Source: Escherichia coli
GTDB taxonomy: Bacteria; Pseudomonadota; Gammaproteobacteria; Enterobacterales; Enterobacteriaceae
Strand: one strand, 5' to 3'
NCBI RefSeq assembly: GCF_041248615.1
Contig: NZ_CP158426.1
Length of the DNA: 64,000 nt
The notes below the pieces were generated by a model, which worked only from the letters and a program-made list of their open reading frames with translations, was not told the origin of the DNA and made no database searches. Positions 53,132 through 60,295 of this stretch are shown here, one piece after another. Made by a program: the position numbers and the translations under genes. Position 1 is the stretch's first letter, and the number at the start of each line of letters is the position of its first letter.

Positions 53132-54031
53132 TTATCGCCCCGTAGTGGATATCAGAAAATCAATCAGGGCCTTCACTCTTTTCGTTTTACCCGCGTTTTT
53201 GGGGTAATAGAGATACACTGGCGGGTAGGTTTTCCAGTATCTCTCCATCACCGGAATAAAGCGCTCCCTGTCCGGCTGTAACTGCCAGACAGGCTCAAAC
53301 AAGCGCCCAATTCCCAGCCCGTTACGGATCCCGTCTGCCATAACGTCAATATCGTTGCTGATTAACTGCCCCGGCATCTCAACGGTCAACTGCTCACCGC
53401 GATCGTTCAGGAGCAGCGGAAGGATGCGGTTGTTGGTGATAAAACGGTAACCAATCAGCTGGTGATGACAGAGATCTGCCGGCACTTCAGGCGTTCCATG
53501 TCGGGAGAGATACGCTGAGGATGCATATAATCCTTCACGAAACGGTTTCATTAACGGTCGGGCCACCACCCCTCCCTCAAGAATATCGCCAAAACGGATC
53601 CCCAGATCAAAACGCTCTTTGATGATATTCACGGTACCGTCGTAGACCGAAATTTCTAACTGTATACCCGGATATTGCTGACAGAATTCTGCCATCGCAG
53701 GCTTAAGAATTAACAGGTAGGCAAAACGCGAGAGCGTAATTCGCACCATCCCAGAGGGCTCCTGATGCTGGTCGCGAATGCTTTCAAGTGAGTTTTCCAG
53801 CGACTCCACCGCCGCAGCGGTCTGTTCCAGCAATAATTGACCGGTTTCCGTCAGCTCTATACGGCGGGTCGTACGCACAAAAAGCGGATGGCCGATATAC
53901 TCTTCCAGCAGCTTTAGTGCATTGCTGACGGAGGGAGGCGTAATTTCCAGTTTCCTTGCGGCTGCCGAAATATTGCCCTCCCGCGCAATGCTCTGGAAGA
54001 TGCGAATCTGGTTATAAAGAGCGTTATTCAT
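53132..54031 (-). CDS. LysR-family transcriptional regulator (island-encoded)
   Basis: 299-aa ORF; N-terminal HTH (ISAAARKLEITPPSVSNALKLLEE); divergent from the enzyme run. Confidence 0.8.
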   Translation of the reverse strand: MNNALYNQIRIFQSIAREGNISAAARKLEITPPSVSNALKLLEEYIGHPLFVRTTRRIELTETGQLLLEQTAAAVESLENSLESIRDQHQEPSGMVRITLSRFAYLLILKPAMAEFCQQYPGIQLEISVYDGTVNIIKERFDLGIRFGDILEGGVVARPLMKPFREGLYASSAYLSRHGTPEVPADLCHHQLIGYRFITNNRILPLLLNDRGEQLTVEMPGQLISNDIDVMADGIRNGLGIGRLFEPVWQLQPDRERFIPVMERYWKTYPPVYLYYPKNAGKTKRVKALIDFLISTTGR

Positions 54032-54166
54032 AATGTTTTCCTAAGCAATTCTCGCCTGATTATTAAGTACAGTCTAAAAATGCTTAAGTCAATGACCCTC
54101 TAATCTTCCTGAAATACGCCTCTTATACTTTAGTCTCTTTCTACTACGACCTGAGTTCAGGAGACT

Positions 54167-54478
54167 ATGATGCGAATTTTATGTCTGGATATCCCTGCCC
54201 CTGGAGCATCGCTGGAGAAATATGCTCCGCACCTCAACGCTGAAGCGCTGCACGCCTGGGGATTGTATAAATCAGGCTTCATCCGCGACATCTACTTCCG
54301 TCAGGACAGACCTGGCGTCGCTATTTTTCTTGAATGTGACTCTGTCGATGAAGCGATGAACGTTATGGCCGAATTCCCGTTGGCAAAAGCAGGCTTACTA
54401 AGCTTCGAGTGTATACCGCTTGGCTCCTTTATTAACTGGGAAAATCTCTTCGCCGATGAATTTAAAAATAAAGAGTGA
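54167..54478 (+). CDS. small alpha+beta barrel protein, muconolactone isomerase/Dabb-like (tentative)
   Basis: 103-aa ORF with AGGAG RBS; family assignment from pattern resemblance only. Confidence 0.45.
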   Translation: MMRILCLDIPAPGASLEKYAPHLNAEALHAWGLYKSGFIRDIYFRQDRPGVAIFLECDSVDEAMNVMAEFPLAKAGLLSFECIPLGSFINWENLFADEFKNKE

Positions 54479-54486
54479 GGACCGAT

Positions 54487-55179
54487 ATGAAACCTGCATA
54501 TAAACCAGTGCTATGTGTCGTTTCCAGCCATCCGATTAAAGGCGCATCCGGTGTACCAACCGGTTTTTTCCTGGCCGAGCTGACTCATCCGCTGAAAGTA
54601 CTGGAAGATGCCGGAATAAAAACAACAATAGCCAGTATTCGCGGGGGGCAGCCACCGGTGGATGGATTTGACCTCAGCGACCCTGTTAACGCCTGGTACT
54701 GGAACGAAACCGATTTTCAGCAGCGCCTGGCAACAACACCTGCGTTATCCGAGCTGAAAGGTGCCGATTACAGCGCAGTTTTCTTTGCAGGTGGTCATGG
54801 GACCATGTGGGATTTCCGTGATAATCAGGATGCCCAGCGTATTATCCGCGAAGTGTATGAAAGTGATGGGATTGTCTCAGCCGTCTGCCACGGGCCTGCG
54901 GCATTGGTTGACGCAAAACTCAGTAGCGGCGAATACCTGATAAAAGGGAAAAATGTGGCGGCCTTTACCAACAAGGAAGAGGAAGAAGTTCACACAACAG
55001 ATGTGGTTCCCTTCCTGCTTGAAACCGCACTTCGCGAGCATGGTGCGCTTTATCATGAAGCTCCAAACTGGTCTGAAAACGTGGTTACCGACGATCGCCT
55101 TATCACGGGGCAGAAGAATCCCGCTTCAGCACATGGGGTTGGTGTGGCGCTGTTAAATGCACTCCGCCGGACAGCTTAA
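54487..55179 (+). CDS. DJ-1/PfpI-family protein (class I glutamine amidotransferase-like fold)
   Basis: ATG at 54487 after GAGG; nucleophile-elbow motif AVCHGPAAL; about 230 aa. Confidence 0.75.
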   Translation: MKPAYKPVLCVVSSHPIKGASGVPTGFFLAELTHPLKVLEDAGIKTTIASIRGGQPPVDGFDLSDPVNAWYWNETDFQQRLATTPALSELKGADYSAVFFAGGHGTMWDFRDNQDAQRIIREVYESDGIVSAVCHGPAALVDAKLSSGEYLIKGKNVAAFTNKEEEEVHTTDVVPFLLETALREHGALYHEAPNWSENVVTDDRLITGQKNPASAHGVGVALLNALRRTA

Positions 55180-58635: not shown

Positions 58636-58750
58636 CCCTTATTCACTTTTCCTCCTCTCGTCTTTGAGAGCGCCAGTAGCGGTCGGTTACGTTCTTACCA
58701 GCACCAGTTGATCGAACGTCTTAAACAGTAACGTCAGTAAAAAGATCATC

Positions 58751-59476
58751 GTGAAAAAGACTTTTATGCTTTTAATTTGCATGCTAATAAGCAGCCCTGT
58801 CTTTGCAACAAAACCGGACGCGCCGAATAAGCCGGAGATGAATATCTTCGAGCTCGGCATCAGACCCGATCGGGACAACGACTTTGCAGACGTGGCCAGA
58901 CAGACGATTTCCGCTTCGGTTGATCATGAAGCAGGTACACTGGCGATGTATGCCCTGCAACGCAGCGACAATTCAGGTCAGGCATTCATGTTCGAACTCT
59001 ATGAAAATGAGCGTGCTTATCGCAAACATCTCAATGCCGCCCCATACAAAGCATTCGCTGCTCGTGCAGCTGACATTATTGACAGGAAGAAGAAAATTAC
59101 CCTGGAGCCACAGTTTCTGGGCGACAAACACATCATACCGAATGAACGAACTATCAATAATCTGGTGATCGTCGAAGTAAAGCCTGAATTTCAGAGCGAA
59201 TTTAGAAACATCGTCCTTCCTGAAATGGTCGAGTCGCTCAAAGTAGAGAAAGGCGTGTTAGCCATGTATGCCGGTACAGATTCAGAGACTCCAAAACGCT
59301 GGTATTTCTATGAGATTTACGCCAGTGAGGAGGATTATCAACTGCACCGACAAACGCTGCACTTCCTGGATTACCTCAGGCAAACGGCGCATATGAGCGC
59401 CAGGAAGGACGCAATCCCGGTAAAACCGGTATTTCTTCGTAACAAAGGCGGAATCAAACAGGAGCCGCAACGTTGA
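58751..59476 (+). CDS. secreted protein with two tandem ABM (antibiotic biosynthesis monooxygenase-like) domains
   Basis: Sec-type signal peptide MKKTFMLLICMLISSPVFA; internal duplication visible (LAMYALQ...FMFELYENERAYRKH / LAMYAGT...YFYEIYASEEDYQLH). Confidence 0.6.
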   Translation: MKKTFMLLICMLISSPVFATKPDAPNKPEMNIFELGIRPDRDNDFADVARQTISASVDHEAGTLAMYALQRSDNSGQAFMFELYENERAYRKHLNAAPYKAFAARAADIIDRKKKITLEPQFLGDKHIIPNERTINNLVIVEVKPEFQSEFRNIVLPEMVESLKVEKGVLAMYAGTDSETPKRWYFYEIYASEEDYQLHRQTLHFLDYLRQTAHMSARKDAIPVKPVFLRNKGGIKQEPQR

Positions 59477-59491
59477 CCAGTAAGGATTAAC

Positions 59492-60295
59492 ATGAAAAGC
59501 GTACTTGCAGCAGCGGCTATGTCGCTTGTTATTTCTGATTTTGCCAATGCTGAGGAAACAAGAGGTAAAGCTATGATGAAAATAGAACCGTCAGCGATTT
59601 CGGAAGCTGATATTCGTTCCGTCTCACCGGCTCTCGCGCGCTTTGGTCGCGAAGCTATTACTGAAGATCTGTGGACACGCGACGCCCTCTCACCGAGGGA
59701 TCGTAGTGTGGTGACCGTCGCCATGCTGATTGCCCGCAACCAGCCTGCCGAGCTTAAGCACTATATTGACGTCGCTCTCGATAGCGGCGTGACGCCAGCG
59801 GAATTATCAGAAATCATTACCCATCTGGCGTTCTACTCAGGTTGGCCAAATGCAATGTCAGCCGTCAGCGTGACCAAAGCAGTATTTGAAACTCGTGGCG
59901 TCACGGCAGATGCACTTCCTGAAGCTTCTCCGGACCTGCTTCCTCTCAATCAGGAAGCAGAAAAGCAGCGTTCAGAGACAGTGGAAAAAAATGTTGGCCC
60001 AATATCTCCAGGCCTGGTTAAATTCACTGCTGATCCACTCTTCCTGGATCTCTGGCAAAGACCCGCGCTGAAACCCCGCGACAGAAGCCTGATTACGGTC
60101 AGCGCCTTAATCGCATCCGGACAGAGCGCGCAGATTGGCTATCACCTCAATAGAGCAATGGATAATGGACTTTCTGTTGAGGAAGCTGGTGAGATCGTTA
60201 CCCAGGCCGCCTTCTATGCTGGCTGGCCAAACGCATTTACCGCTGCTCCGGTTGTGGGAGAGGTGCTAAACAATCGATCATCGAGTAAAAGGTAA
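59492..60295 (+). CDS. secreted protein with two tandem carboxymuconolactone decarboxylase (CMD/AhpD-like) domains
   Basis: signal peptide MKSVLAAAAMSLVISDFANA; duplicated motif LAFYSGWPNA / AAFYAGWPNA. Confidence 0.65.
   Translation: MKSVLAAAAMSLVISDFANAEETRGKAMMKIEPSAISEADIRSVSPALARFGREAITEDLWTRDALSPRDRSVVTVAMLIARNQPAELKHYIDVALDSGVTPAELSEIITHLAFYSGWPNAMSAVSVTKAVFETRGVTADALPEASPDLLPLNQEAEKQRSETVEKNVGPISPGLVKFTADPLFLDLWQRPALKPRDRSLITVSALIASGQSAQIGYHLNRAMDNGLSVEEAGEIVTQAAFYAGWPNAFTAAPVVGEVLNNRSSSKR

Follow-up and report, generated by a model that had tools for sequence, protein, structure and literature searches.

An apparently eroded, LysR-linked cluster of putative quinone- and carbonyl-detoxifying enzymes between hipA and yneL in Escherichia coli

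In Escherichia coli, MdaB and YgiN make up a quinone redox cycle, and LysR regulators of the YhaJ type respond to hydroxyquinone-type aromatics. In the 2,4,5-trichlorophenoxyacetate (2,4,5-T) pathway of Burkholderia, the YciI-family protein TftG, a 5-chloro-2-hydroxyhydroquinone dehydrochlorinase, carries out a step that is followed by quinone reduction, and glyoxalase III activity is known from yeast Hsp31 and Candida Glx3. Plant-associated Enterobacterales are shielded from a plant electrophile by the alt thiosulfinate (allicin) tolerance cluster of Pantoea ananatis (PMC8417944). Here we analyze a 64,000-nucleotide stretch (the window) of the chromosome of E. coli NRZ14408 (RefSeq assembly GCF_041248615.1, contig NZ_CP158426.1), in which an accessory segment, delimited at 52838-60533 by alignment against K-12, lies between hipA and the AraC-family remnant yneL and carries a run of enzyme genes divergent from a LysR-type regulator gene. 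We think it somewhat probable that this segment is a partly eroded, horizontally mobile LysR-controlled operon that neutralizes redox-active and electrophilic carbonyls, the likeliest targets being quinones, hydroquinones and aldehydes (aromatic or dicarbonyl) that originate from plant or soil phenolics. A preliminary description of this DNA knew of no characterized operon with such a composition, and our searches of the full-text literature by accession, composition and theme likewise returned no description of the cluster, the one paper that shared terms with it being that on the unrelated alt cluster.

The locus shares features with each of these systems. Like MdaB-YgiN and KefF/KefG, it combines an NAD(P)H quinone reductase of the Flavodoxin_2 family with a quinol monooxygenase-like protein of ABM fold, and KefF is the best NCBIfam match of the flavoprotein. 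However, this match scores 145 bits against a cutoff of 210, neither the open reading frames (ORFs) nor the annotation of the locus include a Kef transporter (kefC-type) gene, YgiN is cytoplasmic and single-domain whereas the ABM protein here is tandem and apparently exported, and the present cluster appears to be LysR-controlled and has many extra enzymes. In size class the DJ-1 protein goes with Hsp31/Glx3, it shares the Cys-His elbow of the glutathione-independent glyoxalase III enzymes (Hsp31, Glx3, HchA), and YdjG is the best NCBIfam model for both aldo-keto reductases (AKRs), which recalls the methylglyoxal-reducing AKRs YdjG, YghZ and DkgA; yet the proteins of the window score far under the equivalog cutoffs, and glyoxalase systems do not include a decarboxylase-type amidohydrolase, which the DJ-1 gene accompanies in every amidohydrolase locus of the survey below. 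The small protein encoded by the first gene is only 14-20% identical to TftG and ClcF/CatC, has no direct Pfam match, and is not surrounded by the dioxygenase or dehalogenation context of the TftG pathway. As with YhaJ, a LysR-family activator appears tied to quinone and aromatic stress genes, but there is no orthology, the regulator being nearest to YafC (163 bits against a 470-bit cutoff), and the target genes are others. The alt cluster is also a horizontally transferred, regulator-controlled reductase bundle with a CMD-family protein; it differs in its TetR regulator, in its alkene reductase, DsbA-like protein and short-chain dehydrogenase/reductase (SDR), and in having no MIase-like, DJ-1 or ABM protein, so that the two are not homologous as clusters. 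The segment is thus an uncharacterized variant of a common kind, the LysR-controlled detoxifying reductase bundles, and its most interesting element is a conserved, unclassified MIase/YciI-like core protein.

This protein, of 102 residues, is encoded by the first gene of the operon (54170..54478, + strand) and has the dimeric alpha+beta-barrel fold of the MIase/YciI/TftG type. From Enterobacterales to Burkholderiales, Rhizobiales, Myxococcota and Acidobacteriota it retains 62-85% identity, but the conserved subfamily has no Pfam or NCBIfam model: we obtained no direct match in Pfam, NCBIfam or PDB sequence searches, its close homologues have no Pfam match either, and both single-sequence and profile searches against the PDB gave only noise, save for TftG at E = 0.09. 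An AlphaFold model computed with 36 homologues has a predicted local distance difference test score (pLDDT) of 92 and a beta-alpha-beta-beta-alpha-beta topology. The structures nearest to it are ClcF/muconolactone isomerase, YciI and TftG, with clearly lower scores beyond these, and hhalign against a Klebsiella YciI protein gave a probability of 89% with the tight subfamily and of 94% with the wider one. Among 1.84 billion representatives we found 1,370 relatives (50%-identity clusters) at E <= 0.001, only 18 of them at E <= 1e-30; of 38 distant relatives, 17 match Pfam MIase and 7 match YCII. Fold comparison, profile links and these matches together indicate that the earlier assignment as a muconolactone isomerase/Dabb-like protein was right at the level of fold and superfamily, through the model and transitive Pfam matches, although a direct Pfam match does not exist. 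Homologues are labelled "hypothetical" or "superoxide dismutase" in NCBI and UniRef; we rejected the latter label, as the protein matches no Fe/Mn, Cu/Zn or Ni superoxide dismutase in Pfam, NCBIfam or PDB. A His-Asp dyad of the YciI/TftG type was considered and not established, since the histidines lie three columns apart in a MAFFT alignment, and the histidine of the tight subfamily is not invariant across the wider family. Some members of the family are two-copy fusions of 212-309 aa, in this respect like the ABM and CMD proteins, which are tandem as well.

The genomic company of the small gene provides the main evidence on function. We surveyed the loci encoding the small protein in 80 species-representative genomes, mostly of plant- and soil-associated Proteobacteria, scoring stop-to-stop ORFs against the proteins of the window and of Enterobacter mori and against families obtained by clustering the unassigned neighbours. 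A LysR-family gene is present within 3 kb at 79 of the 80 loci, and is divergent and upstream within 2.2 kb at 74. Some quinone-reductase-like gene occurs within 4 kb at 62 loci (on the same strand at 60), be it WrbA-like (45/80), Flavodoxin_2 (13/80), Qor/PIG3-like (10/80) or of the second-flavoprotein type, Flavodoxin_2/FMN_red-like (3/80). A carbonyl reductase, whether an AKR, an Ahr/YahK-type zinc-dependent alcohol dehydrogenase or an SDR, is found at 63 loci, DJ-1 at 53, Amidohydro_2 at 42, DJ-1 being present in all 42, and ABM, DUF1330 or CMD at 40. That three non-homologous quinone reductase families interchange beside the small protein is the strongest argument for quinone reduction in the function of the unit; the carbonyl reductases (AKR, Ahr-type alcohol dehydrogenase, SDR) interchange next to it in the same way. 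Where the preliminary description had suggested a response to quinones, reactive aldehydes or peroxides, these neighbourhoods thus speak for the first two, while the peroxide part is contradicted by a CMD protein devoid of cysteine and CxxC and by the absence of anything resembling superoxide dismutase.

It is possible, and we put it forward only tentatively, that the approximately 100-residue MIase/YciI-like protein represents an undescribed family forming the fixed core of a widespread quinone/hydroquinone module controlled by LysR-family regulators. It would catalyze a cofactor-free step (tautomerization, isomerization or elimination), acting on a hydroxyhydroquinone or quinone and required regardless of the family of quinone reductase present in the host. 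As part of the same tentative proposal, the exported tandem ABM (2xABM), tandem CMD (2xCMD) and DUF1330 proteins would constitute a previously unrecognized periplasmic arm of this defence.

All nine ORFs of the preliminary description are found at their coordinates, and RefSeq annotates them under generic family names. Its family assignments for the LysR, DJ-1_PfpI, two Aldo_ket_red, Amidohydro_2, Flavodoxin_2, 2xABM and 2xCMD proteins, made from the sequence without database searches, are backed by Pfam and NCBIfam profiles. The 230-residue DJ-1/PfpI protein (54487..55179, + strand; Pfam DJ-1_PfpI, 4.6e-13) belongs to the size class of yeast Hsp31 and Glx3, carries Cys134-His135 within AVCHGPAAL, and matches in the PDB 4p5p (8e-47), yeast Hsp31 and Candida Glx3; it stays under the curated equivalog cutoffs of HchA (62 versus 365 bits) and TIGR01383 (31 versus 131). 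The first AKR (315 aa; 55253..56200, + strand; Pfam Aldo_ket_red, 3e-55) has the YdjG methylglyoxal reductase as best NCBIfam match, at 3.6e-34 and below cutoff, and its D-Y-K-H catalytic residues can be read in the translation (WDTAAVY / STKF / WIHNP). The same residues are present in the second AKR (YDTAIAY / ATKF / IYHIWD), a 339-residue protein (57616..58635, + strand; Pfam Aldo_ket_red, 6e-68) whose gene begins 2 bp past that of the flavoprotein. The latter, a KefF-like Flavodoxin_2 NAD(P)H-dependent (quinone) oxidoreductase of 190 residues (57041..57613, + strand), covers positions 1-194 of the 198 of the Pfam model at 2.6e-38.

The last two genes encode proteins made of duplicated domains. 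The tandem ABM protein (58751..59476, + strand; 241 aa when started at GTG) contains two Pfam ABM domains (5e-11 and 3e-10), matches 3mcs and 3f44 in the PDB, and has the predicted signal peptide (V/M)KKTFMLLICMLISSPVFA. A canonical signal peptide requires the GTG at 58751 rather than the ATG at 58781 (231 aa) chosen by the Prokaryotic Genome Annotation Pipeline (PGAP), which removes the n-region and part of the h-region. The GTG start and the N-terminal extension are kept in E. mori and other Enterobacterales, and the annotated start is probably a systematic misannotation in the family. The tandem CMD protein (267 aa; 59492..60295, + strand), with two Pfam CMD domains, bears the predicted signal peptide MKSVLAAAAMSLVISDFANA followed by EE. 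Its PDB match at 2e-73, 4g9q, has no assigned function, and its score against the PcaC model TIGR02425, 115 bits for a cutoff of 155.7, is split over the two tandem domains; no pca genes are found near it, either in the annotation or in the 80-species neighbourhoods. This protein had been described as AhpD-like, which we do not uphold: PcaC-like models are the best, and since none of its 267 residues is a cysteine, and hence there is no CxxC, an AhpD-type peroxidase role is excluded. The signal peptides proposed earlier for the two duplicated-domain proteins are both predicted, that of the ABM protein only from GTG 58751. Hydrophobic signal-like N-termini are found in 24 of 30 two-domain CMD orthologues from Enterobacterales and Rhizobiales, and the E. 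mori DUF1330 protein, lost from E. coli, is also predicted to have a signal peptide. The previously suggested layout with cytoplasmic and periplasmic arms is therefore plausible, signal-like N-termini being conserved in the CMD, enterobacterial ABM and E. mori DUF1330 proteins.

The regulator (299 aa; 53132..54031, - strand) matches Pfam HTH_1 (5e-21) and LysR_substrate (3e-25), and is not an equivalog of YafC, its best NCBIfam match. Only 14 LysR neighbours of the survey are at least 70% identical to it, all enterobacterial. Its gene is separated by a 138-bp intergenic region from the divergent small gene, and this confirms the arrangement reported in the preliminary description, with conserved promoter elements in between. 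The operator-like motif ATTATTAAGTACAGTCTAAAAATGCTTAAGTCAAT (54059..54093) holds a TTA-N9-TAA (T-N11-A) LysR box at 54063-54077. The motif is kept in four genera, E. coli, Klebsiella, Pantoea and E. mori representing them, and the Pantoea box forms the near-palindrome TTAGCC-GCA-GGCTAA. It occurs once in the window, where the chance expectation is 0 matches. In E. mori it is found twice, one copy on either side of an inserted pair of genes for an alkene reductase of the old yellow enzyme (OYE) type and an HxlR-type regulator. The element TATACT (54124..54129, + strand), likewise kept in the four genera, is the candidate -10 element of the operon promoter; the -35 is poor, as expected of an activator-dependent promoter. 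Judged from the sequence, the divergent arrangement corresponds to the usual design of LysR promoters that depend on activation, and the regulator would be expected to bind the box and to co-regulate the run.

The genes of the run are all on the same strand, as reported, but the tight spacing also reported holds only for some pairs, with gaps ranging from 2 to 150 bp. The longest internal gaps are 150 bp (56891-57040) before the Flavodoxin_2 gene and 115 bp before the 2xABM gene. Within the former lie a promoter-like TTCACG-16-TACAAT (56891-56918) and, at 56998, another TATACT, and the Flavodoxin_2 gene has no obvious Shine-Dalgarno sequence; an internal promoter is possible there. About 100 nt past the last gene, a perfect 13-bp inverted repeat (60395..60429, + strand; fold z-score -3.0) is a candidate hairpin for the operon end, though without a clear T-tract, and we offer it as a terminator only as a suggestion. 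An Rfam scan of 52600-61000 returned no structured RNA.

Taken together, these features suggest the following mechanism. On sensing a toxic compound or its product, the LysR protein, bound to the TTA-N9-TAA box, would activate the run on the + strand. As expected from their families, the Flavodoxin_2 enzyme would carry out two-electron NAD(P)H reduction of quinones in the cytoplasm, the two AKRs would reduce aldehydes and ketones, and the Hsp31-class DJ-1 would remove 2-oxoaldehydes or a related adduct. The fold and the gene partnership of the small protein point to a cofactor-free isomerization, tautomerization or elimination, with an intermediate of the hydroxyhydroquinone, quinone or lactone type as substrate; it may thereby supply the quinone reductase with substrate or take up that enzyme's product, as TftG does in chlorohydroxyquinol metabolism. 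In the periplasm, the same class of compounds may be handled by 2xABM and 2xCMD, both exported. The ancestral operon would additionally have had a hydroxybenzoate decarboxylase of the LigW / gamma-resorcylate type, an exported DUF1330 protein and a second flavoprotein.

This ancestral form is inferred from relatives of the cluster. The same cluster is present on plasmids of E. mori, at 91% DNA identity and approximately 3 kb longer, and the identity is 91.5% for Rahnella rivi and 89% for Ca. Pantoea deserta. In these three, and in Pectobacterium, Rouxiella and Serratia, the genes share one order: LysR (on the opposite strand), small protein, DJ-1, AKR, Amidohydro_2 (344 aa), Flavodoxin_2, AKR, DUF1330, second Flavodoxin_2/FMN_red, 2xABM and 2xCMD. 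An identity of 91% across families of Enterobacterales (Rahnella belongs to Yersiniaceae) and on a plasmid indicates horizontal spread. Compared to this order, the cluster of E. coli reads as an eroded copy of an 11-gene operon, not as a complete unit. The amidohydrolase ORF (LigW / gamma-resorcylate-decarboxylase type; 56303..56890, + strand) matches only positions 147-289 of the 289 of the Pfam model. Against the intact 344-aa E. mori gene, E. coli copies have in common a frame-breaking deletion of 356 bp, and the window has a further, specific deletion of 91 bp; in total 447 bp (149 codons) are gone, with the open frame restored by accident. The N-terminal E-x-H motif has also changed, being LEENY here and LEEHY in E. 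mori. What had been noticed as an amidohydrolase-2 fragment is indeed a fragment, which we now classify, from its lesions, as a pseudogene reopened by a second deletion. A scar at 58650..58655 (~58652) marks another deletion, of ~953 bp, which took out the DUF1330 gene, with its signal peptide, and the second Flavodoxin_2/FMN_red gene. The missing middle of the amidohydrolase is kept in none of 5,426 complete E. coli genomes, and a search for an E. coli genome with an intact amidohydrolase or DUF1330 gene found none. With decarboxylase, DUF1330 and second flavoprotein gone from all its copies, E. coli has retained only a reduced version. In Klebsiella pneumoniae, a reduced cluster comprises LysR, small protein, Flavodoxin_2, AKR and 2xCMD; it adjoins a bona fide YciI-family gene and a DUF1349 gene, the latter also occurring near the Pantoea version. 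On the E. mori plasmid NZ_CP119171.1, the insertion with the OYE-type alkene reductase and HxlR-type regulator genes separates the LysR gene from the operon, and 1.5-6 kb downstream of the cluster lies a TetR-controlled block with alkene reductase, SDR and other oxidoreductases.

Several observations weigh against a working detoxification operon in E. coli. Three of the 11 ancestral genes are gone, among them Amidohydro_2, the most tightly linked partner of DJ-1; decay has gone further in some strains, with frameshifts in LysR and CMD in ETEC4075; the DJ-1 of the window has an extra Lys codon inside its conserved TGQNPAS motif, missing from five other E. coli copies; and the cluster is absent from ~90% of E. 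coli. As for its regulation, a generic sigma-70 and terminator scan gave no excess over shuffled sequence and nothing at the expected places, the TATACT at 54124 not being called, and the 150-bp and 115-bp gaps could hold independent promoters, so that the run may not be one transcript. Moreover, outside Enterobacterales the adjacent LysR genes encode proteins only 26-40% identical to the regulator of the window, no closer than unrelated LysR paralogues of the same loci. The pairing is thus conserved at family level only, and we dropped the LysR orthology across all 80 species that had been expected. Finally, we found no experiment or publication tying these genes to a substrate, and the enzyme families are all broad, so that the substrate class is assigned through guilt by association.

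Alternatively, the ancestral cluster may have been a pathway, catabolic or peripheral, dedicated to one particular plant hydroxy-aromatic acid, in which the decarboxylase removes CO2, the MIase-like and PcaC-like proteins handle downstream ring or lactone intermediates, and the reductases are accessory. We consider this unlikely, although it accounts for a number of findings. The intact E. mori amidohydrolase is a complete barrel with N-terminal E-x-H metal ligands, matches 3nur in the PDB (7e-73) and LigW (5-carboxyvanillate), 2,3-dihydroxybenzoate, gamma-resorcylate and salicylate decarboxylases at 1e-47 to 1e-30, and, judged by these matches, belongs to the branch of non-oxidative hydroxybenzoate decarboxylases. 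MIase-like and PcaC-like families both stem from the beta-ketoadipate pathway, Amidohydro_2 is among the commonest partners of the small gene, with DJ-1 at every such locus, and the hosts are mostly plant- and soil-associated. Nevertheless, the recurrent neighbours are dominated by reductases and include no ring-cleavage dioxygenase, aromatic hydroxylase, cycloisomerase, enol-lactonase or dedicated transporter, and the CMD and ABM proteins are predicted to be exported. The decarboxylase is never part of the versions found in Klebsiella and Pantoea, and the eight genes remaining in E. coli are under purifying selection without it; with the decarboxylase destroyed, the E. coli copy could no longer run such a pathway.

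The rates of substitution also bear on whether the E. coli cluster is a functionless relic in the course of being lost, whose intact-looking ORFs reflect recent acquisition and not use. We computed the ratio of nonsynonymous to synonymous substitution (dN/dS) against the E. mori, Rahnella and Pantoea orthologues, so that the values cover the whole divergence and not the E. coli branch alone. The ratio is lowest for the small protein (0.016-0.044), followed by AKR2 (0.05-0.10), LysR (0.06-0.12), DJ-1 (0.06-0.08), CMD (0.08-0.11), AKR1 (0.09-0.11), Flavodoxin_2 (0.16-0.21) and ABM (0.18-0.27), all well below 1. Within E. coli, six copies differing by up to ~1.4% yield a pooled ratio of nonsynonymous to synonymous polymorphism (pN/pS) of 0.21 (32.5 nonsynonymous versus 46.5 synonymous changes), with the small protein unchanged in all six. 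Furthermore, most of the carriers sampled from a total of 429 have undamaged versions of all eight ORFs, of the operator and of the -10 element. The eight surviving genes are thus under purifying selection, which argues against a purely dead relic, and we regard this explanation as quite improbable. Least of all can the cluster be read as a peroxide or superoxide defence in which an AhpD-like alkylhydroperoxidase (the CMD protein) works alongside a superoxide dismutase (the small protein): AhpD is a CMD-family member and many homologues of the small protein bear the dismutase name in NCBI and UniRef, but the cysteine-free, PcaC-type 2xCMD and the MIase/YciI fold of a small protein outside every superoxide dismutase family largely refute it at the level of sequence, and we take it as essentially excluded.

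If the detoxification reading is true, the cluster exemplifies a widespread and unstudied bacterial defence against quinones and aromatic aldehydes derived from plants and soil, of which approximately one tenth of E. coli, clinical lineages included, would carry a reduced form. Four families so far without a role, namely the small protein of MIase/YciI type, the tandem exported ABM proteins, the tandem exported CMD proteins and DUF1330, would gain a concrete function open to testing. In addition, a propagated "superoxide dismutase" misannotation is corrected, and the stepwise decay of an acquired operon is documented at one chromosomal site of E. coli, the variable hipA-yneL slot.

At this site, K-12 MG1655 has only hipA, the yneL pseudogene and a truncated ydeT, in agreement with the preliminary description, and the inference drawn there that the segment is accessory DNA missing from K-12 is borne out by the alignment and by the genome survey. 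At least 80% of the segment is present in 429 of the 5,426 complete E. coli genomes, and any match to it in 520, corresponding to ~8-10% of E. coli; it is nearly always chromosomal. The alignment places the junctions at ~52837 on the left and 60533-60541 on the right. The left boundary (52821..52838) carries one copy of a split direct repeat (ATGTATATT ... GTTAAAT), with K-12 identity stopping at ~52837, and the right boundary (60502..60533) carries the other (ATGTATATT ... 16 bp ... GTTAAAT), with identity resuming at ~60541. We rejected a classical, integrase-mobilized island, as 52838-60533 contains no integrase, transposase or tRNA and its GC content is ordinary (0.44-0.53, resembling the flanks). 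The ends are marked by the 9+7-bp split direct repeat alone, which is compatible with an insertion as well as with a microhomology deletion.

The hipA-yneL slot appears to be a hotspot of cassette replacement. Many other carriers (e.g., WP3-W18-ESBL-08) have, just downstream of hipA, a gene for a SIR2-family NAD-dependent deacylase and an ISNCY transposase remnant, inserted ~25 bp to the left of the left junction (~52810); it forms another cassette, independent of the island, that may encode a defence function. In E. coli NT1W22 (NZ_CP075469.1, 2387096-2395297) only the last ~93 bp of the CMD gene remain, and to their left the island is replaced by genes for a very large ATP-binding protein, an AAA ATPase and hypothetical proteins, which are defence-like. 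Several E. coli IncF-type plasmids have a pseudogene remnant of a related cluster: for example, IncFII NZ_CP135651.1 (21351-21826) retains fragments of NAD(P)H oxidoreductase and CMD genes, 86-94% identical, among insertion sequence (IS) elements and adjoining ANR-family regulator and zinc metalloprotease genes.

The flanks of the segment differ from K-12 as well. Upstream of hipBA, 45514-50934 encodes an intact 1,806-aa autotransporter of the ECSE_1600 family, whose K-12 counterpart yneO (b4696) is a pseudogene. On the other side, the yneL-like AraC-family remnant (60687-60944) has lost its N-terminus, and in the ~120 bp directly upstream of it K-12 and the window are wholly different. Beyond it, 61378-64000 holds an apparently intact fimbrial operon, with a fimA-like major subunit, a chaperone, a full-length usher, ydeS and ydeR, where the K-12 counterpart of the usher is the truncated ydeT only.

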